A program made the position numbers and the translations under genes. Of a stretch of 56,431 nucleotides of DNA, positions 1 to 56,431 are shown piece after piece. Below the pieces are notes generated by a model, which was given only the letters and a program-made list of their open reading frames with translations, ran no database searches and was not told where the DNA came from. The first letter of the stretch is position 1, and the number at the start of each line of letters is the position of its first letter. Origin of the DNA: a virus (Duplodnaviria > Caudoviricetes); IMG/VR virus record IMGVR_UViG_3300023214_000125, positions 1-56,431 of that record. One strand, written 5' to 3'.

Positions 1-68
1 GCCCGAGCTGGTTCACACAAACGGCAGCGTCAAGGCACACGGATGACGCACCAACATTCCACCGCAAC

Positions 69-100
69 AGCGCCCGGCTTCGGTCGGGCGCTTTGTATTG
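69..100 (+). terminator. Intrinsic terminator
   Basis: AGCGCCCGGC-TTCG-GTCGGGCGCT stem with UUCG loop, followed by TTGTATTG. Confidence 0.7.
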
Positions 101-140
101 GCGAGTTTCTATCAATTTTCCAAATTCGCCAAATTGCCCC

Positions 141-169
141 TTGACATTTGTATTAAAGTGTGATACAAT
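141..169 (+). promoter_or_regulatory. Early sigma70-type promoter
   Basis: TTGACA-17bp-TACAAT with extended -10 TG. Confidence 0.85.
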
Positions 170-214
170 GTATTCAACGACGAGGAACAGTAACTGGATA
201 ACAGGAGATACAAA

Positions 215-541
215 ATGAAGCAGAACAATAGCAATCACAGAGTGGTAGAGTTCACGAATCAGGGACGCATTACACTCTATGCGACTCCAGACGTAAAAAT
301 CGATGGTTTCGAGTACCGAGGCGCAAATGCGTGGTCAGCTCAAGCTACAAGTGCCAGTGAACTTGTAAACCTAGTAAAAAGCGCAATTGAGGCAGGCTGC
401 AGCTTGAGCATACAAGAGAAATTTATTGATCAGTCGATGCAGATGTTTGGGGACGTTCCTCTAACTATTCGCAATCATCCAGGCGATGATACTGAATTCA
501 CTCACTACGACAGCATCAGCGAATACAAAGCGCAACAATAG
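215..541 (+). CDS. Hypothetical early protein
   Basis: 108 aa ORF with strong SD (ACAGGAG) directly downstream of the promoter. Confidence 0.75.
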   Translation: MKQNNSNHRVVEFTNQGRITLYATPDVKIDGFEYRGANAWSAQATSASELVNLVKSAIEAGCSLSIQEKFIDQSMQMFGDVPLTIRNHPGDDTEFTHYDSISEYKAQQ

Positions 542-603
542 CCGAAACGCCCTCCGGGGCGTCTGACCGGGGATAGTCGCCCGGCGCTGAATGAGGCAGA
601 CTG
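541..603 (+). ncRNA. Type II hammerhead ribozyme (variant core)
   Basis: GCC-GAAA-CGCCC(TCCG)GGGCG-TC^ then stem I, then CTGAATGA-GGC; loop-I AGTC (575-578) can pair with 3' GACT (599-602); predicted cleavage after C563. Confidence 0.75.
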
Positions 604-621
604 AATACAGGAGACAATCAA

Positions 622-882
622 ATGACAATTCGCAAGGGTGAAATTATTGAGTACGCACTGACCAACAGTACAGCCATTCCTCCGAAGCGAGGCACGTTGA
701 TCGTAACTGGATTTGAACGTAACGACATTTTCAATACATACAACATGAATTTCGAGTACTTGATTGAGCAGGAGGGAAGCGAGGAACAGGCTGGCGAATC
801 CTCTGTAACTGTTGAGGAAGAAAAGCCGCCCCAGAAAATCACCTGGGGGTGGTACAACGAGGAATGGACGCTAACAGGATGA
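622..882 (+). CDS. Hypothetical early protein
   Basis: 86 aa ORF, SD CAGGAG. Confidence 0.7.
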   Translation: MTIRKGEIIEYALTNSTAIPPKRGTLIVTGFERNDIFNTYNMNFEYLIEQEGSEEQAGESSVTVEEEKPPQKITWGWYNEEWTLTG

Positions 883-1151
883 CTAGCCACCCGCTAACCT
901 TCCGCCCAGACGAGGCCAACGTGCCTCGTCTGGCGGAACTAGAAAAGCGGTACAGAAACCGCACAGCCGCAGTCAACGCAGCTATCGAGCTGCTGCACCA
1001 GCGAGAGTGCACCACGCCGAGCGTGGTGCATCGAATGGCCATCGACACCAGCGTGTGCTGCCTAGCGTGCAGCGCACAAGCCGAGTGGCTGGTGTTTTAC
1101 ACTGACAACAGTTTTAGCTGGCGATGCAGTCAGCACGCCAACGAAGCGTAG
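879..1151 (+). CDS. Small putative DNA-binding protein (RHH-like N-terminus, Cys-rich C-terminus)
   Basis: ATGA overlap with upstream stop; LTFRP...NRTAAVNAAIELL resembles a ribbon-helix-helix; CxxC...CxxH. Confidence 0.55.
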   Translation: MTSHPLTFRPDEANVPRLAELEKRYRNRTAAVNAAIELLHQRECTTPSVVHRMAIDTSVCCLACSAQAEWLVFYTDNSFSWRCSQHANEA

Positions 1152-1191
1152 GCGCATCGAGCGCCACAATGCCCCCACACGGGGCGGAAAG
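1151..1191 (+). repeat. Dispersed two-hairpin CRISPR-repeat-like unit, copy 1
   Basis: GGCGC-ATCGA-GCGCC ACAAT GCCCC-CACAC-GGGGC GGAAAG. Confidence 0.85.
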
Positions 1192-1202
1192 AGGAATGAA
1201 TT

Positions 1203-1454
1203 ATGTTAGTAAAAATTGGCGAAAAAAACATTCTCAATTACTTAAATCGAGATGCGCCTGCGAACGAAATGCAACAGATTGAAGCGGAAGTGGAGCGGCT
1301 TTTGAAGCCGCTCCAAGAAGACTACGGCCCAATCACCGTCCAGATTATCCCAGGACAACATGGCATTGCCGTATGGGATGACGAGGGAAGTTTTTTGTCG
1401 TACTTAGCCCCAAATGTGCGGCGAGTACTATGGCCTGTACTCGACAGGCACTAG
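1203..1454 (+). CDS. Hypothetical early protein
   Basis: 83 aa ORF, SD GAGGA immediately after repeat 1. Confidence 0.7.
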   Translation: MLVKIGEKNILNYLNRDAPANEMQQIEAEVERLLKPLQEDYGPITVQIIPGQHGIAVWDDEGSFLSYLAPNVRRVLWPVLDRH

Positions 1455-1468
1455 CAGGGGGAGGAATT

Positions 1469-2107
1469 ATGGATAAATGGGGGCGCGTGGGGAAATACCC
1501 CATCTACGAAGAAGTCAATGACTTGGCGCACAACGTGCGCCAAGAAACGGGATACCATACCTGGTGGCACAATGGCCAGGTGTTGGCATCCCCGCAACTA
1601 TACTCCTGGCGTGAATATATTGAAGTGCTTCTGTTCCATACTGACTCCCAGTATGGAGCCAGACCGGAGCACATCGCCGTAAATCACAAGGCTCTGCACC
1701 CATGCTGTGCAGAGTATCCCGAGTACCCTCCATTCGAGGGTACTTACGGGAAACAAATTCTGATCGGCGCGAGCGAAGCCAACTACGTAGTAAGTGGTTG
1801 GCGCCCATCGCCATACGGAAACAGCAAGGAGGGGGAGCGATTGTTCGTGATCGCTCTCTTCCCTGGAGGGGGGTCGATGGAAATCGACCTCCCGAGCCTG
1901 AACAAGGCGCAGGTTCGCTGCGCCGATCGGGAGTTGCACGGGTACGGCGACTCGTCGGCCCACGGCCCGGGGGTTGGAGGCGGCTCCACCTGGTCGACCT
2001 CGTTCTCTGTCTGGCTCCCGAAAACATCTATCTCGGGGATCTTGCTCCGTCGTCTCGACCTGGACGACGGAGAGCAGCGACTAATAAATGATATATTTGC
2101 TGATTGA
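1469..2107 (+). CDS. Hypothetical protein
   Basis: Start reset to ATG 1469 behind GGAGG; 212 aa. Confidence 0.7.
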   Translation: MDKWGRVGKYPIYEEVNDLAHNVRQETGYHTWWHNGQVLASPQLYSWREYIEVLLFHTDSQYGARPEHIAVNHKALHPCCAEYPEYPPFEGTYGKQILIGASEANYVVSGWRPSPYGNSKEGERLFVIALFPGGGSMEIDLPSLNKAQVRCADRELHGYGDSSAHGPGVGGGSTWSTSFSVWLPKTSISGILLRRLDLDDGEQRLINDIFAD

Positions 2108-2123
2108 CTTGACGTTGACGCCA

Positions 2124-2165
2124 TGGCGCACCGTGCGCCACAATTGCCCCACACGGGGCGGAAAG
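2124..2165 (+). repeat. Dispersed two-hairpin CRISPR-repeat-like unit, copy 2
   Basis: TGGCGCA-CCG-TGCGCCA CAATT GCCCC-ACAC-GGGGC GGAAAG. Confidence 0.85.
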
Positions 2166-2172
2166 AGAAAAA

Positions 2173-2724
2173 ATGTACGTACTAAACTTTGGGCACTCGA
2201 TGAGCGAAGAGCAGAAGAGAGAATTACAAGAGTCCTGTGGTGCAGAGCACATGGAATATCACGAAATTGCCGTGCAAGTGGACACGTCGAAGCCACTTGC
2301 ACCACAGATACAGCGAATAGTGGCGGAGGCCACAGATGCGCTGGGCGGCAATGTCTACAACGCCGATGTGATCATCCCGCCCGGTTTCAGCATCGTGGCC
2401 GCGCACCTCGTCCACCACTTCCCGACAGCCAACCTGGCTGTCATCGCCCGAGACACAAGCTCGCCGGTCCCGGTGTACCAGGCAACCGGCGAGCTGCTAC
2501 GGCCAGTGCGCCCCAACGGAGGAACCATGTACACACTGTTTGCCCGCTCGTTGGGTGCAGAGGCACGCGCCAACGGGCAATACCATCCTGTACGCGATGA
2601 TCTCGCGGTCGACCTTACACAGGGCGACTGCGAAAGGTGGGTGGATATTCCGCAAGCACTGCGAGAAGAGATTCTCGCAGCGTGGTATGCAGGTTGGCGC
2701 GCCGAAGACCTTATCCAGTCATGA
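2173..2724 (+). CDS. Csx15-like (cOA-binding/ring-nuclease family) domain fused to a small C-terminal domain
   Basis: N-terminal LNFGHxMxxEQ, VQVDxxKPLAPQI and IIPPG motifs recall Csx15 (LNFSHPLTxEQ...QFDxxxPFAPQV...NPP); internal in-frame SD GGAGG plus ATG at 2527. Confidence 0.6.
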   Translation: MYVLNFGHSMSEEQKRELQESCGAEHMEYHEIAVQVDTSKPLAPQIQRIVAEATDALGGNVYNADVIIPPGFSIVAAHLVHHFPTANLAVIARDTSSPVPVYQATGELLRPVRPNGGTMYTLFARSLGAEARANGQYHPVRDDLAVDLTQGDCERWVDIPQALREEILAAWYAGWRAEDLIQS

Positions 2725-2768
2725 GTGACATGAGTGAGCAGAATCGCCTGGACATAACAAATTGCCCC

Positions 2769-2797
2769 TTGACATAGTTGTTATCGTGTGATATAAT
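2769..2797 (+). promoter_or_regulatory. Early sigma70-type promoter
   Basis: TTGACA-17bp-TATAAT with extended TG; shares upstream AAATTGCCCC with the promoter at 141. Confidence 0.9.
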
Positions 2798-2840
2798 ATT
2801 ATCACAGACGACAATAGATAGATAGACAAGGAGACACGAA

Positions 2841-3092
2841 ATGACACAAGGCGAGATGCGCGAGATTGCGCTAGGGGCAGCACGAAGTGAATTGCGTCAG
2901 TTCGGCATCGAGCCGAAGACCGCCGACATTTATACCGCAGAGCAGGCGCTGGACAACATCCTACGCAGCACGCCGAATGCGATAGCTGCCCGCTGGTATG
3001 AAAATGCCAGCGATAATCAGTGGGAGTTGTTTAAGAGAGAGTGGAGACGATACCAAGCTGCGAGCCGTAGAGATTCTTACAATAATGACTAG
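2841..3092 (+). CDS. Hypothetical early protein
   Basis: 83 aa ORF, SD AAGGAG. Confidence 0.75.
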   Translation: MTQGEMREIALGAARSELRQFGIEPKTADIYTAEQALDNILRSTPNAIAARWYENASDNQWELFKREWRRYQAASRRDSYNND

Positions 3093-3300
3093 ACTCGACA
3101 AACTCATCACCGTGCAGCAGGCTGTACAACTCGCAGCCTCCCACGGCGAGGACGTGCCGCCCGTCACCGTGCGATGGGCCGCACGAAAGGGGTGGATACC
3201 CAACGCCCAGAAGCTAGGACGCGACTGGGTATTCACCGACGTAGATTTTGTATCCTGGCTTCGTAATCGACCGAAGCCGGGACCGAAGCCGAGCAAATAA
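3085..3300 (+). CDS. Excisionase/MerR-like (HTH_17-type) DNA-binding protein
   Basis: LITVQQAVQL...TVRWAARKGWIPNAQKLGRDWVF pattern. Confidence 0.75.
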   Translation: MTRLDKLITVQQAVQLAASHGEDVPPVTVRWAARKGWIPNAQKLGRDWVFTDVDFVSWLRNRPKPGPKPSK

Positions 3301-3301
3301 C

Positions 3302-3342
3302 TGGCGCATCGAGCGCCACAGTGCCCCGAACGGGGCGGAAAG
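3302..3342 (+). repeat. Dispersed two-hairpin CRISPR-repeat-like unit, copy 3
   Basis: TGGCGC-ATCGA-GCGCCA CAGT GCCCCG-AA-CGGGGC GGAAAG. Confidence 0.85.
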
Positions 3343-3353
3343 AGAGATGTGTT

Positions 3354-3659
3354 ATGTACACTCTTGAGTTTGGAGAAACCCCGTTGGGGCCTAATATCAT
3401 CTGGAACGAGGACGAGGACCGCTATGGCAGACTGTCAGGTGTGTATACCACACCTGACGGCAAGACATTTCCCGTATATTGCCGCGCCACCAACTGGGGC
3501 GGCAATGAAAGCGAATGGGAATGGCGTGTGGCTGGCATTACGATTCGCAGTTTGGACCGCCATGGGCGGCGGTTCGACGAGACGGAACTACAGGAATTTC
3601 GTACCCGTGTTAGAGAAGAAATTTCAAAAAATGATGTTGACAAGGGTGACGCAGCGTGA
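3354..3659 (+). CDS. Hypothetical early protein
   Basis: ATG 3354 after repeat 3; 101 aa. Confidence 0.65.
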   Translation: MYTLEFGETPLGPNIIWNEDEDRYGRLSGVYTTPDGKTFPVYCRATNWGGNESEWEWRVAGITIRSLDRHGRRFDETELQEFRTRVREEISKNDVDKGDAA

Positions 3660-3704
3660 TGTGTATCTGAGCACACACACATTGCCCCGACACGGGGCGG
3701 AAAG
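3660..3704 (+). repeat. Dispersed CRISPR-repeat-like unit, copy 4 (first hairpin divergent)
   Basis: ...CACATT GCCCCG-ACA-CGGGGC GGAAAG. Confidence 0.8.
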
Positions 3705-3713
3705 AAGGACACC

Positions 3714-3926
3714 ATTAAGCGGGAATTTGATATCGACCAGTTGCGACTGGTCGATGACGAAATCAACGGCTTGTCAATCTGCCGGACCGACACCGGTATG
3801 CGTAGACACATACCAGACGGATATCGGTGGATGCATACCATCCAGCCGTGGATTGGCGTGGTGTCGAATCCACTGGTGCATTTACCATTGCACGAATGCC
3901 TGAGATGGTGGAGGAATTTAGGTTAG
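3714..3926 (+). CDS. Hypothetical protein, possible ATT start
   Basis: In-frame ATT at 3714 lies just after GAAGGA; the ORF track starts at TTG 3741. Confidence 0.45.
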   Translation: MKREFDIDQLRLVDDEINGLSICRTDTGMRRHIPDGYRWMHTIQPWIGVVSNPLVHLPLHECLRWWRNLG

Positions 3927-3953
3927 CGTTCGCTGTGTAGTGGGACTACACAC

Positions 3954-4026
3954 AGCCCGGCCATCACACGATGCGCCGGGCTTTTCTTTTCTCGCGTAGG
4001 AGTCAACTCCTACGCGGTTTTTTGTT
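3954..4026 (+). terminator. Tandem intrinsic terminators at the early/late convergence
   Basis: AGCCCGGC...GCCGGGCT-TTTCTTTT and CGCGTAGGAGT-CA-ACTCCTACGCG-GTTTTTT. Confidence 0.8.
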
Positions 4027-4028
4027 GC

Positions 4029-4934
4029 CTACTGCACGGGCACCCACGGCAGCCACCAGCGCCACACCCTCACCGGCGGCACCGTGGCCGTACCCCCACG
4101 CACCGCGGCCCACGCGTCGATGCGCCCATGCCCAAACTCCACATCATACCCCGGCGCGCCCAAATCCACCGCGCTGCCCACGATAATCCGCGCCACATCC
4201 GCCGCGTCATGACCCTGGCTCAGCAGCAAACCCGCCAGGCCCGCCACGTGCGCAGCTGCGATACTGGAGCCACTTGCAAATGTGTAGCCTGGCCGCGCAT
4301 GGTGCGCGGCCTTGATGGATTCACCGGGCGCGCTGATGTCTACGTGCGCGCCCACATTACTCAACACGTATTGCTCATCCTGCTTGGTGGTTGCGCTCAC
4401 ACCAAGCACGCCAGGGTAGCACGCGGGGCAGATGACGGCATCGGTCCCACTGCTGCCGGCCGCGGCCACCAGAAACACGCCGTGCTCCTGCGCGTAGACG
4501 ATGGTGTCGTGTAAGTTTCCTGACGGCTGACTGTCGCCGAGGGCGTACAAAATTACATCCGCACCATTGCTGGTGGCCCACACTGTTGCATCCGCGATAC
4601 GTTGCCATCCGCCCGCCGTCGGCGTCTCCGCTAGCGCCTTGAGCGGCATGATGGAGCATTCGGGGCATACGCCGACGGTCGCGCCCGCTGCGACGGACGC
4701 CACCCGCGTCCCGTGCCCGTGGTCGTCCGCCGGCTCAGTGTCGTTGTGCACAAAATCGTATCCAGGTACGATGCCGTTCGGGAATTCCTCATGCTCGGCG
4801 TAGATGCCGGAATCAATGATAGCAATCACGACATCCGATGAGCCGCGCGTGATGGTCCACGCTTCCGGTGCGCGGATGAGGTCCAGGTTCCACGGGATGA
4901 CGGCGAATAGAAGCGTTATCAGCAGATGCGTCAT
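4029..4934 (-). CDS. Subtilisin-like S8 serine protease, probably exported
   Basis: IAIIDSG, HGHGT and SGSSIAAAHVAG catalytic-triad motifs; hydrophobic N-terminus. Confidence 0.9.
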   Translation of the reverse strand: MTHLLITLLFAVIPWNLDLIRAPEAWTITRGSSDVVIAIIDSGIYAEHEEFPNGIVPGYDFVHNDTEPADDHGHGTRVASVAAGATVGVCPECSIMPLKALAETPTAGGWQRIADATVWATSNGADVILYALGDSQPSGNLHDTIVYAQEHGVFLVAAAGSSGTDAVICPACYPGVLGVSATTKQDEQYVLSNVGAHVDISAPGESIKAAHHARPGYTFASGSSIAAAHVAGLAGLLLSQGHDAADVARIIVGSAVDLGAPGYDVEFGHGRIDAWAAVRGGTATVPPVRVWRWWLPWVPVQ

Positions 4935-5137
4935 GCGTCCTCGTTGTCTTCCGCGCTACGCACGAATCCCTCGTCCGCCGTGGCGATGTTCCATCCGTCC
5001 GCTGCCGGTGCGTCATGCTCAGCGCGCAGGTAGGCGAGGAATTGCTGCACGGCCTGCGCGGCCATCTGTTGCGCCTGCGCCAGTGCGTCGAGATGCGCCT
5101 GTTGCGCGTCGGTTAGTGGTTTGCGTTCGTCAGACAA
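4931..5137 (-). CDS. Hypothetical protein
   Basis: TTG start behind GGAGG; overlaps both neighbours. Confidence 0.55.
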   Translation of the reverse strand: MSDERKPLTDAQQAHLDALAQAQQMAAQAVQQFLAYLRAEHDAPAADGWNIATADEGFVRSAEDNEDA

Positions 5138-6413
5138 GTTGCGCCTCCAGGTTGTCGAGTCGGTCGAGTATGTGGTTGAGTGCGGCAATCGTGTCGCCGT
5201 GCAACGTGATGATGTTTAGCGATTTCCCCTGCGGATGGTCGTTGTCGCGGTCCATGCCGTAGTGTGGCGCGAGGTCTGTCACGATGCCGTCAAACTGCTC
5301 TCCATTGTAGCGCCCGTTCCGATACACAAAGCGCCGTCTCGCCCGTGCCGCGCCACGCACGCGAGCAATAGCGGCGTGTGTGCTGGGCAGCGCATCATCA
5401 ATGTTTTTCGATGCGGCGAAGCTGGTTTGGTCGCCAACAACTGTCCCCGCCGATTCATCGACAGATGGTGAGCCGGTACTGCCGGTTGGAGAAAATGATG
5501 ATATGCGTAAATCTCCCGTATTATCTACCCACGTACTGTACGTGGAGTTGTTCGCCGTGGTGTATTGCATTACGCCTGGTGCCCCGCCCACTGTGCCATC
5601 CGCCGCGTTTGTGTTACGACCCACCACAAAACGCGGTCCTGACTCGTCGTTGCCTAGGTCTCGGGTGTTTATGGTGAAATTTGAGGACACAGCCGACGCA
5701 AATGCCGAGCAAACATCATCACTGTCCCACGTGCAGGCGAGTAGATTGTTATTAAACGCGTCGCCGCTGCTCGTGGCCGCTACCACAATGCCACCTGCAA
5801 CCGACATTTGAGCGCCGGGCGCAGAGTTCAACACGCCCACGCGTTTATTGTCGCGGTCAATCGTCAAAATGGCCGTGCTGTCCGAGTGGTTGAAGTTGAG
5901 CACGTTTTCCGACACATCGTAGGTTAAATCAATCTCGCCCGCCCAATCGATCGACTGGTCACTTGTCGCGATGAAATTGATATTGCCATTTGTCAGAGTA
6001 ATATTGCCACTGGCGAGAGACAGACTATTCGAGCCGGTGAAGTTCATTGCGTCGCTGACAGTTACCGGTGCCTGAAGGCGAACATCTGTCCCGCCCAATT
6101 GTGCAAGACTTGTCGTTATAATAGCTCCGGTGGTGATGCTGCTCGTTGACGTAATTGCAGAGGTCAAGGATACTGCCGCGTTCAACGTAATTGTGCTGTT
6201 GAATGTGACAGACTGCCCGACCGCAAACGTGTGCGTGCCGGTCCAATTGTAGTCCGCGCTCTCGTCCACAGCGCCGCCGACCGACGCCTCCAGCGTGTCG
6301 AGGCGCGAATCCTGCGATACCAATTCGGCGTCCAACGTGCCGAGCGGCGTATTCACCGTGGACGCATCGTTCGACGCGCCATTGACGATTGGTGTGTGAA
6401 ATGTGGTGGTCAC
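5130..6413 (-). CDS. Tail fibre/spike with C-terminal intramolecular chaperone (peptidase S74-like)
   Basis: Thr/Ser/Asn-rich beta repeats; TSFAASKNI...RFVY...GIV...coiled-coil end; last tail gene. Confidence 0.75.
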   Translation of the reverse strand: MTTTFHTPIVNGASNDASTVNTPLGTLDAELVSQDSRLDTLEASVGGAVDESADYNWTGTHTFAVGQSVTFNSTITLNAAVSLTSAITSTSSITTGAIITTSLAQLGGTDVRLQAPVTVSDAMNFTGSNSLSLASGNITLTNGNINFIATSDQSIDWAGEIDLTYDVSENVLNFNHSDSTAILTIDRDNKRVGVLNSAPGAQMSVAGGIVVAATSSGDAFNNNLLACTWDSDDVCSAFASAVSSNFTINTRDLGNDESGPRFVVGRNTNAADGTVGGAPGVMQYTTANNSTYSTWVDNTGDLRISSFSPTGSTGSPSVDESAGTVVGDQTSFAASKNIDDALPSTHAAIARVRGAARARRRFVYRNGRYNGEQFDGIVTDLAPHYGMDRDNDHPQGKSLNIITLHGDTIAALNHILDRLDNLEAQLV

Positions 6414-44849: not shown

Positions 44850-45743
44850 ATGATATTCCGCACCGTCAAAGACAAAAACAATCCATACACTCGGCTTGGC
44901 CATGCTACCATCAACGATGAACGCCTTAGCTACAAAGCTATCGGGATACACACCTACCTGATGAGCAAGCCAGACGACTGGCAGGCAAACGAGGCCGACA
45001 TCACAGCGCGCCACAGCGAAGGCAAATCGGCGGTGCGGAGCGGCGTACAAGAACTTATACAGTACGGATACATGGCGCGTGTCCAGTTGCGCAAGGATAA
45101 GAAAATTGTCGGGTGGAGACTCGACGTGTACGAATCGCCAGAAGTAAACCCGCATTACGATCTAGAATCGCCAGTTGATTACGTGGTCATTGACCTAGAT
45201 TCCGATAACAAGAATGTAGCTGACCTAGATTCCGATAAGCAAGATGTAGATAACCTAAATCTAGATAACCGGAATGTAGGTGCGCAGCCAGAGGATGAGC
45301 AGTCGAGTACAGACCTAGATTCCGATTACCTAGATTTAGATAAGCAAGATGTAGGAAATCGGAACCATAGTAAAGATCCAATAGAAGTAACAAATAACAA
45401 CAACAAAGAGGGTGGTGGTGGTCGTCGCGCAGCCGATGCCGCATATGGTACCCTGTGCAAAGCAGTTGAGAACGAAATAGGGTTACTATCCCCGATGGCT
45501 GCTGAAAAGCTGGGGGCGTTGGCGGACGAACACCCGCACGATTGGATACTTGATGCGCTGCGCATTGCGGTCAATCAAAACAAAAGAAGTTTGGCATACG
45601 TTGAAGGCATCTTGACCCGATGGAAGGCTGAAGGTCGGGACAGCCCGAAACCACAACGACGAGCCGGGCCGGTCGATTCCGTTGCCGATGCCAGTTGGGA
45701 CAAGCTATTCGCAAATTCACCACATTTACAGGACAGGAGCTAA
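44850..45743 (+). CDS. Replication initiator (N-terminal HTH, C-terminal DnaD-like domain)
   Basis: LSYKAIG...YLMSKPDDW N-terminus; SLAYVEGILTRW C-terminus; internal iterons. Confidence 0.85.
   Translation: MIFRTVKDKNNPYTRLGHATINDERLSYKAIGIHTYLMSKPDDWQANEADITARHSEGKSAVRSGVQELIQYGYMARVQLRKDKKIVGWRLDVYESPEVNPHYDLESPVDYVVIDLDSDNKNVADLDSDKQDVDNLNLDNRNVGAQPEDEQSSTDLDSDYLDLDKQDVGNRNHSKDPIEVTNNNNKEGGGGRRAADAAYGTLCKAVENEIGLLSPMAAEKLGALADEHPHDWILDALRIAVNQNKRSLAYVEGILTRWKAEGRDSPKPQRRAGPVDSVADASWDKLFANSPHLQDRS
45191..45410 (+). repeat. Iteron-like repeats; probable replication origin
   Basis: GACCTAGATTCCGAT at 45192, 45222 and 45312 plus AAGATGTAG variants on a 15-bp period, then an A-rich tract. Confidence 0.7.
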
Positions 45744-51700: not shown

Positions 51701-54700
51701 ATGAAATTTGAGATGCCGAAGTTATTTGTAGATGAGTATCGAATGCAGCCTGTTTCCTTTGGGTTTGGCGATATGGGCAAGGTCACATTCCTGCGCACGT
51801 ACAGCCGACAAGATAATCCAAATGTGGACGGTCAGGAGGGCTGGGCGGATGTGTGCGAGCGTGCAATCAATGGGATGTATTCATTTCAGCAGCAATGGTG
51901 CGAAGAAAATGGCGTAAACTGGAATTACGAGAAGGCTGTACGCAGTGCAAAAGATGCGTACGACATGATGTTTCAGATGAAGTGGACCCCACCTGGGCGT
52001 GGATTGTCCATGATGGGTGTGCCGTTCGTGATGGAACGCGGCGAGGTCGAGAGTCTTCAAAACTGTGCGTTCATTAGCAGCAAATATATTGATCGTGAGA
52101 GAGGTGATTTCTTCGCTTGGCTGATGGAGCGGTCCATGTTGGGTGTGGGTGTGGGGTTTGATACCCGAGGATCTGGCAAGCTACGGATACACGCCAAGCC
52201 CGGACAGGAGGGTCGTACGTTTATGGTGCCCGATAACCGACAGGGCTGGGCGGAATCTGTGCGCATGTTAATTGATTCTTATCTCAATCCCACGATGCCA
52301 CACTGGCAATTTGACTATAGCCTAGTGCGCCCGCGGGGTAGTTTGATCCGTGGCTTTGGTGGCGTGGCGTCTGGGCCTGAACCGCTAATTGACCTGCACA
52401 GATCCATCCGCAAGATTCTGGATACGCAGGATGGCCAGCTTCTGAACAGCCGCACCATCGTTGATTTGTGCAATCTGATAGGCAAATGCGTTGTGTCAGG
52501 GAATGTGCGGAGATGTCTCCCAAAGGGAACGCTCATACATACAAGGGATGGCCTTGTGCCTATTGAGAATATTTGCCCAGGGATGGCGGCTAAAACATCG
52601 GATGGGTATGCGGAAATTAGCGAATTAATCGAGCAGGGTACGCAAGCAACAATTCTTATTCAGACTCAGCTCGGTGATTTTGAGTGTACCAAGTCTCATC
52701 GGGTGGCTGTGATGACTTCGCCAGGAGAGTACACATGGAAACTTGCATCTGAGCTATTGCAAGGCGAACGACTAGTTTTTGTTGAGGGTATGATTAATGG
52801 TGTAAACACTCATTTGCCTGATTGGTCGTATGATAAGCCGTTGCATTCGACTACATGCGTTGATATAGATATCCCCACCTTAGATGCAGATATGGCTTGG
52901 TTCATTGGAATGTTTCATGGCGATGGTTATGTTTACCCTAATTTTGAGAATGGTGGATTCAATGCTTACGTGATGGTTGCCTGTGACACCAAACATTCCG
53001 AAATTATCAATCGGGTGGAACAGCAGATAGAGCGATTCGGGGTAAACATAAATCGAGTTGAGCCTTCCGAGTCCGATAAATCCGTAAAGGTACGGAGTCA
53101 GTCAAAGCAACTTGCTTGGTATTTATCTCAGATTAAGGTCGCTAACGAGCCGATCAGTGTGCCAGATTTCATCTTAAAGGGCACCCATAGAGTGCGAGCA
53201 GCTTATGTAGCTGGACTCTTTGATGCTGATGGCAGCTCGGCTACTAGGCCTGTTCTGGTTGCGTCCTCAGTGTATCCGACTTACTTGAAAGAAGTGCAGT
53301 CGCTTTGCGCATCTTTGGGGATTCCAACGAGAATGCGATTGCATAGAAAAGCAAGAGGGCAATGGAGGTCACTGTATCATCTCTCCGTAGTTGGCGCTCG
53401 TGCGGTAGGCAGATTTCAAGGTATTGTGACCCCTTATAGTTCGAAGTACGAAGATACACGCAAGACACAGAGAAGCCAACATGGATATGGGTATGAGTTG
53501 CTAGGCGGGGATTGCAAGGGGCTAATACCCATCAAGGTGAATGGGATTCAGCCGGGGCGAACGGTTGAAACTTTCGATATAAGCGTTCCTGGCGCACATG
53601 AGTTTGTAGCTGCCGAGGGTTTACTTGTTCACAATTCTGCCGAGATTGCACTTGGCGATCCAAGCGATAGCGAATTCATTAACTTGAAAAACTACGATTT
53701 GTATCCCGAGCGTGCTGAGTATGGTTGGGTGTCTAACAATTCCGTATTTGCCGAAGTCGGCATGGATTACAGCAGCGTAGCCGAACGCACGTGGGCGAAT
53801 GGAGAGCCAGGCTACTACTGGCTGGAAAATGCGCGCCAGTACGGGCGCATGAATGGGGTGCGCAAACCCGATGTGGGGGTGATGGGCGCCAACCCATGCA
53901 ACGAACAGAATTTGCACCATCGTGAGGAATGCACGTTGGTGGAAATCTTTTTGCCACGGTGCAAAAACAAGCAGGAGTTTGAGCGAGCTATCAAGTATGC
54001 TTACCTGTATGGGAAAAGTGTTACCTTGGCCAATGAACGCATTCGTGATCCGCAGGCGCGCGATGTAATGTGCCAAAACCGGCGGATCGGATTGTCGGTT
54101 ACAGGCATTACTCAATTTGTTGGACAACGCGGCATGGGCACATTGCGGGATTGGCTGGATCACGGCTATTACATTAGCGGTTACTATGACCAGCTATATT
54201 CGCAATGGCTAAACGTCAATGAATCCATCCGCCGCACCAGCGTCAAGCCCAGCGGAACCGTCTCTATCGTAGCCGGTGTAACGCCTGGCGTTCATTTTGC
54301 GCCCGCTGGTCGCCATCATATCCGCCGTATTGTGCTGGCAGATGATAGCCCGCTTGTGGAGCCATTGCAGGCCGCAGGGTATCCTATCGAGCCGTCCGCT
54401 TATACACCGGGTAGCGTGGCGGTGTCGTTCCCTGTTGACGCTGGACCGGGCGTGCGTAGCGAAAGTGACGTAAGTATGGACGAACAATTGCAGCTTGTAT
54501 CACTGGTGCAACGCCATTGGGCCGACAACGCCGTGAGCGCCACGGTGAAGTTTGATCGAGAGGCAGTTGGGCCAGATGACATTAAACAGGCGCTTGAACA
54601 TTATCAACATCGACTCAAGGGAATTAGTTTCTTGCCAAGTGAGGGCCACGGCTACGAACAAGCGCCATATGAGAGTATTGATAAAGAGACGTACCGTGAC

Positions 54701-54802
54701 TTGATGGCAAACATTGCGCCATTTCGGGCAAGCGGTATTGGGGAGCAGGACAAGCAGATGGATCTTTACTGTGATGGCGACGCTTGTGTAGTCGCCGTGT
54801 AA
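51701..54802 (+). CDS. nrdJ: Class II (B12-dependent) ribonucleotide reductase with intein
   Basis: RTYSR, PPGRGL, NCAF, GANPCNEQ, TSVKPSGT and C-terminal CDGDAC. Confidence 0.92.
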   Translation: MKFEMPKLFVDEYRMQPVSFGFGDMGKVTFLRTYSRQDNPNVDGQEGWADVCERAINGMYSFQQQWCEENGVNWNYEKAVRSAKDAYDMMFQMKWTPPGRGLSMMGVPFVMERGEVESLQNCAFISSKYIDRERGDFFAWLMERSMLGVGVGFDTRGSGKLRIHAKPGQEGRTFMVPDNRQGWAESVRMLIDSYLNPTMPHWQFDYSLVRPRGSLIRGFGGVASGPEPLIDLHRSIRKILDTQDGQLLNSRTIVDLCNLIGKCVVSGNVRRCLPKGTLIHTRDGLVPIENICPGMAAKTSDGYAEISELIEQGTQATILIQTQLGDFECTKSHRVAVMTSPGEYTWKLASELLQGERLVFVEGMINGVNTHLPDWSYDKPLHSTTCVDIDIPTLDADMAWFIGMFHGDGYVYPNFENGGFNAYVMVACDTKHSEIINRVEQQIERFGVNINRVEPSESDKSVKVRSQSKQLAWYLSQIKVANEPISVPDFILKGTHRVRAAYVAGLFDADGSSATRPVLVASSVYPTYLKEVQSLCASLGIPTRMRLHRKARGQWRSLYHLSVVGARAVGRFQGIVTPYSSKYEDTRKTQRSQHGYGYELLGGDCKGLIPIKVNGIQPGRTVETFDISVPGAHEFVAAEGLLVHNSAEIALGDPSDSEFINLKNYDLYPERAEYGWVSNNSVFAEVGMDYSSVAERTWANGEPGYYWLENARQYGRMNGVRKPDVGVMGANPCNEQNLHHREECTLVEIFLPRCKNKQEFERAIKYAYLYGKSVTLANERIRDPQARDVMCQNRRIGLSVTGITQFVGQRGMGTLRDWLDHGYYISGYYDQLYSQWLNVNESIRRTSVKPSGTVSIVAGVTPGVHFAPAGRHHIRRIVLADDSPLVEPLQAAGYPIEPSAYTPGSVAVSFPVDAGPGVRSESDVSMDEQLQLVSLVQRHWADNAVSATVKFDREAVGPDDIKQALEHYQHRLKGISFLPSEGHGYEQAPYESIDKETYRDLMANIAPFRASGIGEQDKQMDLYCDGDACVVAV
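52514..53635 (+). mobile_element. Intein with LAGLIDADG homing endonuclease
   Basis: GNVRR|CLPKGT...IGMFHGDG...AGLFDADG...LLVHN|SAEI; 374 aa. Confidence 0.93.
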
Positions 54803-55525: not shown

Positions 55526-55554
55526 AATGCGCTAGTTTGAATAAGTATCGAGAG

Positions 55555-55585
55555 AGCGCCGGCACAAGTCGGCGCTTTTTTGTTT
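55555..55585 (+). terminator. Intrinsic terminator
   Basis: AGCGCCGGC-ACAA-GTCGGCGCT then TTTTTGTTT. Confidence 0.85.
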
Positions 55586-55639: not shown

Positions 55640-55668
55640 TTGACAAAGGTAGCTATCTATGATATACT
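55640..55668 (+). promoter_or_regulatory. Early sigma70-type promoter
   Basis: TTGACA-17bp-TATACT with extended TG. Confidence 0.85.
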
Positions 55669-55716
55669 ATAGATACAGAGGCGAAACAGTAAATAGACAA
55701 AACAGGAGATACAAAA

Positions 55717-55884
55717 ATGAAACACCACATTAATTTTTACCTTAGCGAAGAGTTGTCTTGTGATGATGAGGGCAGTATTGTAATGCTGTGTGATGAATGT
55801 GTGGGGGACTACACCAGGGAAGAAGTACCATTTTGGGGGAGCGGGGACGAGGAATGCACATGCGAAATCTGCGGTAAAAAGTAG
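55717..55884 (+). CDS. 55-aa acidic Zn-binding protein (not in ORF track)
   Basis: SD ACAGGAG; MKHHINFY...CDEC...CEICGKK*. Confidence 0.7.
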   Translation: MKHHINFYLSEELSCDDEGSIVMLCDECVGDYTREEVPFWGSGDEECTCEICGKK

Positions 55885-55889
55885 ATAGA

Positions 55890-55917
55890 CGACCTGGGCA
55901 AGTCGCTAAAAGGCCCA
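55890..55917 (+). ncRNA. H-type pseudoknot motif, copy 1
   Basis: CGAC-CTGGGCAA-GTCG-CTAAAAG-GCCCA. Confidence 0.55.
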
Positions 55918-56309: not shown

Positions 56310-56315
56310 ATTGAG

Positions 56316-56344
56316 TCGACCTGGGCAAGTCGAAAAACTGCCCA
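56316..56344 (+). ncRNA. H-type pseudoknot motif, copy 2
   Basis: TCGAC-CTGGGCAA-GTCGA-AAAACT-GCCCA. Confidence 0.55.
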
Positions 56345-56387
56345 ATATGGCGAATCAAAGTAGAAACCAACTAACAGGAGATACAAA

Positions 56388-56431
56388 ATGAACAACTGGA
56401 AGCGTGAATCACTGAAACTCACGACCGACGA
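56388..56431 (+). CDS. Early gene running off the window end
   Basis: SD ACAGGAG plus ATG; if joined to position 1 it stays open to TGA at 44-46 (29 aa). Confidence 0.5.
   Translation, partial: MNNWKRESLKLTTD

Follow-up and report, generated by a model that had tools for sequence, protein, structure and literature searches.

A type II hammerhead ribozyme, with a pseudoknot between loop I and the 3' tail and with one extra nucleotide in its catalytic core, was located at positions 540-605 of a tailed-phage record, between two co-directional early genes. This assignment is strongly supported. It is likely that the element is a genuine hammerhead of the early operon, which folds, cuts after C563 and makes the gene 1 message independent of the remaining operon, the insertion after A6 being tolerated.

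The window (the whole stretch of DNA analysed) is an IMG/VR virus record that is 56,431 bases long; it is classed as linear, and its completeness is estimated at 78%. Its genes for a portal, a large terminase, a tape-measure protein and a ribonucleotide reductase identify it as a tailed phage. No named phage is close: the portals of Arthrobacter phages have about 54% identity to that of the record, and a megablast search of window positions 1-6000 against named phages gave no match. The left 4 kb consist of a plus-strand block of small genes behind a near-consensus sigma-70 promoter (Table 1). The proteins encoded by early genes 1 and 2, on either side of the hammerhead, could be associated with no PHROG, Pfam or PADLOC family and have no relative among the viral contigs. 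A homologue of gene 1, about 90% identical, is present in sequencing run X3, where it is followed by a hammerhead.

Several other features of the record were noted along with the early operon. A 21-nt segment with the SD and start of gene 1 (199-219) recurs exactly at 56372-56392 and, 670 nt earlier, with 81% identity at 55700-55720; a terminator-like hairpin (about 55553-55585) and a promoter-like site (about 55640-55670) precede the latter copy. The early region seemingly crosses the ends of the record, and the record may therefore be a permuted or incomplete genome. A 31-nt intergenic repeat occurs in two copies (55887-55917 and 56314-56344) that are 84% alike and have no Rfam match; by eye, its short hairpin has a UGGGC loop that could pair with a GCCCA a few bases downstream, so that a small pseudoknot is possible. 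The ribonucleotide reductase ORF (51701-54802, plus strand, 1033 aa) includes an HNH-endonuclease-like stretch at residues 396-456, which may be an intein or a homing-endonuclease insertion. Further, 15-nt tandem units at 45192-45379, within ORF 44850-45743, would encode a repeated five-residue motif.

Table 1. Coordinates of the early operon features and of the parts of the hammerhead, in window numbering.
Feature	Position	Strand	Details
Terminator-like hairpin	69-92		Upstream of the early promoter; consensus match only
Sigma-70-type early promoter	141-169	+	TTGACA, 17-nt spacer, TACAAT, TG before the -10; 11 of 12 hexamer matches; consensus match only
Early gene 1	215-541	+	108 aa, orphan; UAG stop (539-541) overlaps the first base of stem II (G541)
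Type II hammerhead, whole match	540-605	+	RF02276, model positions 1-66 of 66; 45.7 bits
Stem II, 5' strand (GCC)	541-543	+	Pairs with 595-597; C543-G595 is the 11.1-10.1 pair
Conserved GAAA (G12 A13 A14 A15.1)	544-547	+	Invariant in the 13-sequence extra-A alignment
Stem III hairpin, 6 bp	547-562	+	547-552 with 557-562 (A547-U562 to C552-G557); UCCG tetraloop 553-556
Predicted scissile bond	563-564	+	After C563 (H17 of GUC 561-563); placed by the Rfam alignment
Stem I hairpin	564-586	+	564-571 with 580-586: U564-G586, G565-C585, A566 bulged, C567-G571 with C580-G584; loop 572-579
Catalytic core strand (CUGA-A-UGA)	587-594	+	C3 U4 G5 A6, inserted A591, U592 = N7, G8 A9
Stem II, 3' strand (GGC)	595-597	+	Pairs with 541-543
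3' tail (GACU and G603)	599-603	+	Pseudoknot with loop I A575-C578 (AGUC)
Early gene 2	SD 609-613; 622-882	+	SD AGGAG; ATG at 622; 86 aa, orphan
Intergenic repeat	1151-1196, 2125-2170, 3303-3348, 3664-3709		Pair of short hairpins followed by GGAAAGAG and a start codon
Second promoter	2769-2797		12 of 12 hexamer matches; consensus match only
Terminator-like hairpin	3992-4017		Downstream end of the early operon; consensus match only

An earlier, sequence-only reading had listed the elements of a hammerhead in type II order, and every one of them was found in place when the sequence was read. The Rfam search that it had suggested returned Hammerhead_II (RF02276) with a score of 45.7 bits, the curated cut-off being 37 bits, and with an E value of 3.2e-6 when the whole window was compared with 4227 families and of 7.7e-10 in a single-family search. 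The single-family search gave no match in 14 control genomes. In the rest of the window no further Rfam match was obtained, even at E<=5, and a relaxed descriptor scan of both window strands revealed no second hammerhead. The conserved core bases are all present in order (C587, U588, G589 and A590; G593 and A594; G544, A545 and A546; and C563, an H17 that is not G), as are the conserved pairs A547-U562 (A15.1-U16.1) and G595-C543 (G10.1-C11.1). Between loop I and the 3' tail, bases 575-578 and 599-602 form four Watson-Crick pairs, which a U574-G603 wobble could extend. The element had also been said to start at a stop codon, and the UAG of ORF 215-541 does overlap G541.

The core from C587 to A594 reads CUGAAUGA. 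The claim of an extra core nucleotide was borne out by the Rfam alignment, in which A591 is inserted; the strand is 8 nt long and not the uninterrupted 7-nt CUGANGA of the consensus. Natural hammerheads with an insertion after A6 are reported to cleave weakly (PMC3088659), and exact core spacing is therefore regarded as typical of the family and not as defining it. The minimum-energy fold recovered the three stems, of which I and III are capped by loops while II is left open. Its energy is ordinary (z -0.70), 47 of 200 shuffled sequences folding as well, and support for the ribozyme thus comes from motif and covariation, not from stability.

Relatives were sampled with two sequence patterns. 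In the first, the common stem III was fixed and two core bases were left free, which gave 16 viral loci. By inspection, five of these are hammerheads with an 8-nt core (AU in L035, L036, L042 and L044; AA in L043) and three are canonical hammerheads matched by accident; only the three canonical ones pass the Rfam cut-off among the 16 loci, and none of the five reaches it, which speaks against easy recognition of the variants. A control pattern with the canonical core gave at least 120 matches. The second pattern ends at CUGA, so that the bases that follow are unbiased, and it yielded metagenome contigs (among the matches listed) and 20 viral loci. Requiring GAAAC upstream and removing duplicates left a sample of 78 sequences among the matches listed, including the window. 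The core in this sample (again among the matches listed) is CUGANGA in 66 sequences, CUGA-A-N-GA in nine (eight AU and one AC) and of another kind in three, namely one G8A form and two non-hammerheads. In L169 the core is CUGAUAA, with G8 changed to A and C3 unchanged, and this RNA may be inactive. An extra U between A9 and stem II (CUGAUGA-U-GGC) is present in 28 of the 66 canonical relatives and in none of the extra-A members among the matches listed. Several contigs, for example L108, L291 and L056, carry two to five hammerheads flanking successive genes.

The same second pattern gave at least 120 matches in reference genomes. Six of them, among the matches listed, have GAAAC upstream and comprise five canonical hammerheads and one non-hammerhead; no extra-A hammerhead was found in reference genomes among the matches listed. 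A further viral pattern, made of the end of stem I, a core with NN and stem II, had a single match, a non-hammerhead within coding sequence. Phages related through the portal were also searched: 24 records (25 loci found), mostly short fragments, contained no Hammerhead_II match over the cut-off, and all but two of the records are at most 64% identical in the portal. Matches of 13 bits in two of the portal-related records were regarded as noise.

Covariation was assessed in an alignment of 13 extra-A sequences, consisting of the nine of the second sample, with the window among them, and L035, L036, L043 and L044. A few rows are mis-registered by MAFFT in stem I and in the pseudoknot, and the figures for pairing and covariation are therefore conservative: 88.5% of the cells are paired, against 34-40% when partners were slid by 1-3 columns, and compensatory changes occur at nine of 21 pairs, against 4.5 +/- 1.3 in shuffles, one of 500 of which reached that number. 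By stem, 100% of the cells are paired in stem II, 98.7% in stem III and 87.3% in stem I; the covarying pairs include two of the three in stem II and four of the five in the pseudoknot. A pseudoknot of at least four Watson-Crick pairs can be formed by 60 of 75 relatives among the matches listed, compared with a mean of 6.6 and a maximum of 13 for shuffled tails (200 shuffles), and by seven of the nine extra-A members among those listed. The pseudoknots of the variant members differ from one another yet stay complementary (AGUC/GACU, GGCC/GGCC, UGACC/GGUCA, GGUC/GACC and others).

The genes around these hammerheads were compared through 131 flanking proteins, covering the nine extra-A loci of the second sample, with L035, L036, L043 and L044 outside the comparison. 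The flanking proteins of the nine loci show no mutual similarity at E<=1e-5, and none of the 40 similar pairs found among the 131 proteins involves these loci. Since the flanking proteins are unrelated, the shared fold has not been carried along with a conserved gene neighbourhood.

The inserted A591 is genuine. It is covered without gaps by contigs from two DNA runs of one study (record 1 of run X1, spanning 166-915, and record 10 of run X2, spanning 257-626), a support that is only partly independent because X1 or X2 may be the source sample of the record. Among RNA runs, none was found to contain sequence from window positions 100-4100. The relative in run X3, from the same study, has a canonical core at the same place, without A591 and without the bulged A566, and its hammerhead has a stem III that is seven bases longer. 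Since so close a relative has a canonical core, the extra A may have arisen recently, and it is possibly mildly harmful.

The insertion is not confined to the window. Twelve other hammerheads have a base inserted after A6, and this base is A in all of them (among the matches listed). An extra-A core is found in eight of the 74 non-window hammerheads among the matches listed, or about one in ten of the subfamily. For six of the nine extra-A members, the nearest hammerhead sequence among the matches listed is canonical. A clade of extra-A hammerheads was considered and set aside, as the neighbours are mixed, and counting origins would take longer sequences that are less restricted by the search pattern. 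A bulged A in stem I is present in eight of nine extra-A hammerheads and in 20 of 66 canonical ones (among the matches listed), an association with a Fisher p of 0.0012, or 0.0029 without the window, for sequences that are phylogenetically non-independent; the bulge that accompanies the extra A is a lead, not a result. Overall, the insertion after A6 is a tolerated natural variant that probably slows catalysis without abolishing it.

A more far-reaching proposal is that the insertion is non-accidental and defines a selected subclass of phage type II hammerheads, in which the added base is always A and usually goes with an A bulged out after the second pair of stem I. The share of the gene 1 message that stays joined to the operon would then be set by cleavage that is slower or condition-dependent, and the ribozyme would also be a seam for swapping cassettes. 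We consider this proposal doubtful and offer it tentatively.

It is improbable that A591 has instead crippled the hammerhead, effectively stopping catalysis and leaving a remnant that acts as intercistronic hairpins or has no role. Dead relics should accumulate damage in stems and core, whereas the stems and the pseudoknot are maintained and covary, and the other core bases of the window are all intact. The low activity reported for an A6a insertion (PMC3088659), the canonical core of the X3 relative and the scores of the variant-core relatives, which fall below the Rfam cut-off, would all fit a loss of function; however, the same insertion, always an A, recurs in the 12 other hammerheads among the matches listed, and the eight of these with compared flanks sit between unrelated genes.

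The relatives are packed tightly between cistrons. For 71 of 75 among the matches listed, an ORF 40 or more codons long has its stop codon no further than 40 nt upstream; the median distance from this codon to stem II is 0, and in 50 of these 71 (among the matches listed) it is between -1 and +1. An SD and a start codon are found downstream in 62 of the 75, at a median of 22 nt after stem II, again among the matches listed. The corresponding gaps in the window, -1 from stop codon to stem II and 24 nt from stem II to start codon, are thus typical for the family.

Two contig observations concern the ends of this region. One X1 contig joins position 195 to 909, and so is without gene 1, the hammerhead and gene 2. 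The X3 relative, which keeps gene 1 and the hammerhead, loses its similarity to the window just past the pseudoknot tail (from 604) and regains it at about 909. As judged from these comparisons, the hammerhead lies at a mosaic boundary of the early region.

Such a boundary could mean that about 60 nt, near-identical across many phages, serve for cassette exchange by recombination, with cleavage being secondary. We regard this as very improbable, even though similarity in X3 stops just past the hammerhead tail, the X1 contig skips from 195 to 909 and hammerheads more than 85% alike are found between unrelated genes (among the matches listed). That catalytic bases are strictly kept, and that pseudoknot changes are compensatory, points to selection on an RNA fold and not on mere DNA identity, the two contig observations come from a single study, and exchange at this site is in any case compatible with cleavage. 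That a GC-rich region of intergenic hairpins resembles the motif by chance has a negligible probability: the fold energy is indeed the same as that of shuffles, but the E values (3.2e-6 for all families, 7.7e-10 for the single family), the end-to-end model match that includes the pseudoknot tail, and the gene context as found in 71 and 62 of 75 relatives (among the matches listed) argue against it.

The hammerhead occupies a position that is filled by another element elsewhere in the operon. The sequence-only reading had drawn this parallel, and four other operon junctions do carry a repeat between stop codon and SD (Table 1). Its description of these repeats as CRISPR-like did not hold, since the four copies are 361-1178 nt apart, irregularly spaced and separated by genes, whereas a CRISPR array has regular direct repeats with short unique spacers. 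The four junction repeats gave no Rfam match (E<=5). The second hairpin together with the SD recurs in seven other viral loci (L304-L310), at nine sites that include several duplicates, and each of the nine lies 7-11 nt before an ATG. These hairpin-plus-SD repeats may act in processing, as a stabiliser or as a translational operator.

For the hammerhead itself, self-cleavage of the early mRNA after C563 is the best reading of the analysis. Such self-processing, which the sequence-only reading had put forward, agrees with the known or proposed behaviour of the family. The operon transcript, bounded by the promoter (141-169) and the terminator (3992-4017), would fold into a three-way junction during its synthesis, and the pseudoknot between loop I and the 3' tail would dock stems I and II. 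The RNA would then be cut after C563 by internal transesterification. The gene 1 mRNA would end one base past the 6-bp, UCCG-capped stem III hairpin, with a 2',3'-cyclic phosphate. On the downstream mRNA the first nucleotide, carrying a 5'-OH, would lie at the foot of the stem I hairpin, with the gene 2 SD 45 nt further on. Separate folds, such as that of 500-563, support these terminal hairpins. The products are expected to come apart, since stem II is just three pairs long. Hairpin ends with non-standard chemistry should be poor substrates for exonucleases and for the 5'-monophosphate-stimulated RNases of bacterial mRNA decay. The likely effect would be to uncouple the stability and expression of gene 1 from those of the following genes, both products probably being stabilised. 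The analysis shows the family membership, the fold, the covariation, the gene context and the reality of the inserted base; cleavage in vivo, its rate and its effect on the fate of the mRNA we infer.

Comparable processing is known from other systems. RNase III cuts the early polycistronic mRNA of phage T7, and RiboJ is a synthetic ribozyme insulator. As proposed for the window, both involve an intercistronic cut, hairpin-ended mRNAs and uncoupled expression; the window RNA differs from the T7 case in that it would cut itself without a host enzyme, leaving 5'-OH and cyclic-phosphate ends. An insertion in the core strand is also known from a viroid, the CChMVd hammerhead having an extra A between A9 and G10.1. 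One-base insertions between A9 and G10.1 are likewise tolerated, at a site that differs from that in the window.

Phage type II hammerheads with a pseudoknot, as well as a rare insertion after A6, are already known (PMC3088659). According to this source, type II hammerheads with a loop I/3'-tail pseudoknot often occur around single genes in phages and prophages; they cleave polycistronic fragments during transcription, and it was proposed that they convert long phage transcripts into gene-length mRNAs (PMC3088659). The RF02276 hammerheads described there share with the window their topology, core bases, pseudoknot, place between co-directional phage genes and proposed role (PMC3088659), and the window differs from them by its extra A after A6. 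The window record has a single copy, whereas several related contigs have two to five copies flanking successive genes. Further, in D. vulgaris, three type II hammerheads adjoining phage-like genes cleave in vivo (PMC8782182), and a natural A6C core variant prefers Mn2+ (PMC7151607).

The closest precedent for A591 is the 'A6a' variant, in which the insertion likewise directly follows A6 of CUGANGA (PMC3088659). Its in vitro activity is low, which was ascribed to a disturbed or lost backbone contact to U4 (PMC3088659). As described there, A6a is a single low-activity case (PMC3088659), whereas here the insertion is present in eight of 74 non-window members of one subfamily, among the matches listed. 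A full-text literature search for 'A6a' together with 'hammerhead' gave no relevant report beyond PMC3088659. In the genome of phage PaP3, one of the variant sources named in PMC3088659 and thus a candidate for A6a, no Rfam hammerhead match was found at E<=1.

The HHphage ribozyme of haloviruses HF1 and HF2 is similar in having a core insertion and in lying in an early viral region just before a start codon (PMC3088659). For this ribozyme, a transcript 5' end has been mapped within 3 nt of the cleavage site (PMC3088659). Unlike that of the window, its insertion adjoins C3 and stem I; further differences are its host, a halophilic archaeon, and its need for very high Mg2+ (PMC3088659). A literature search returned no paper that settles the biological role of such hammerheads.

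The present results leave unchanged what is known of the nature of hammerheads and of where they occur. They add that the insertion after A6 recurs, is always an A and tends to accompany a bulge in stem I, and that the ribozyme here sits at a mosaic boundary of the early region. The pairing of insertion and bulge gives a simple double-mutant system for studying how the core tolerates an extra base. The window provides one more phage with an RNA of the self-cleaving type fitted precisely into the gap that separates a stop codon from the following ribosome-binding site, which supports the view that such ribozymes are standard punctuation of phage operons.
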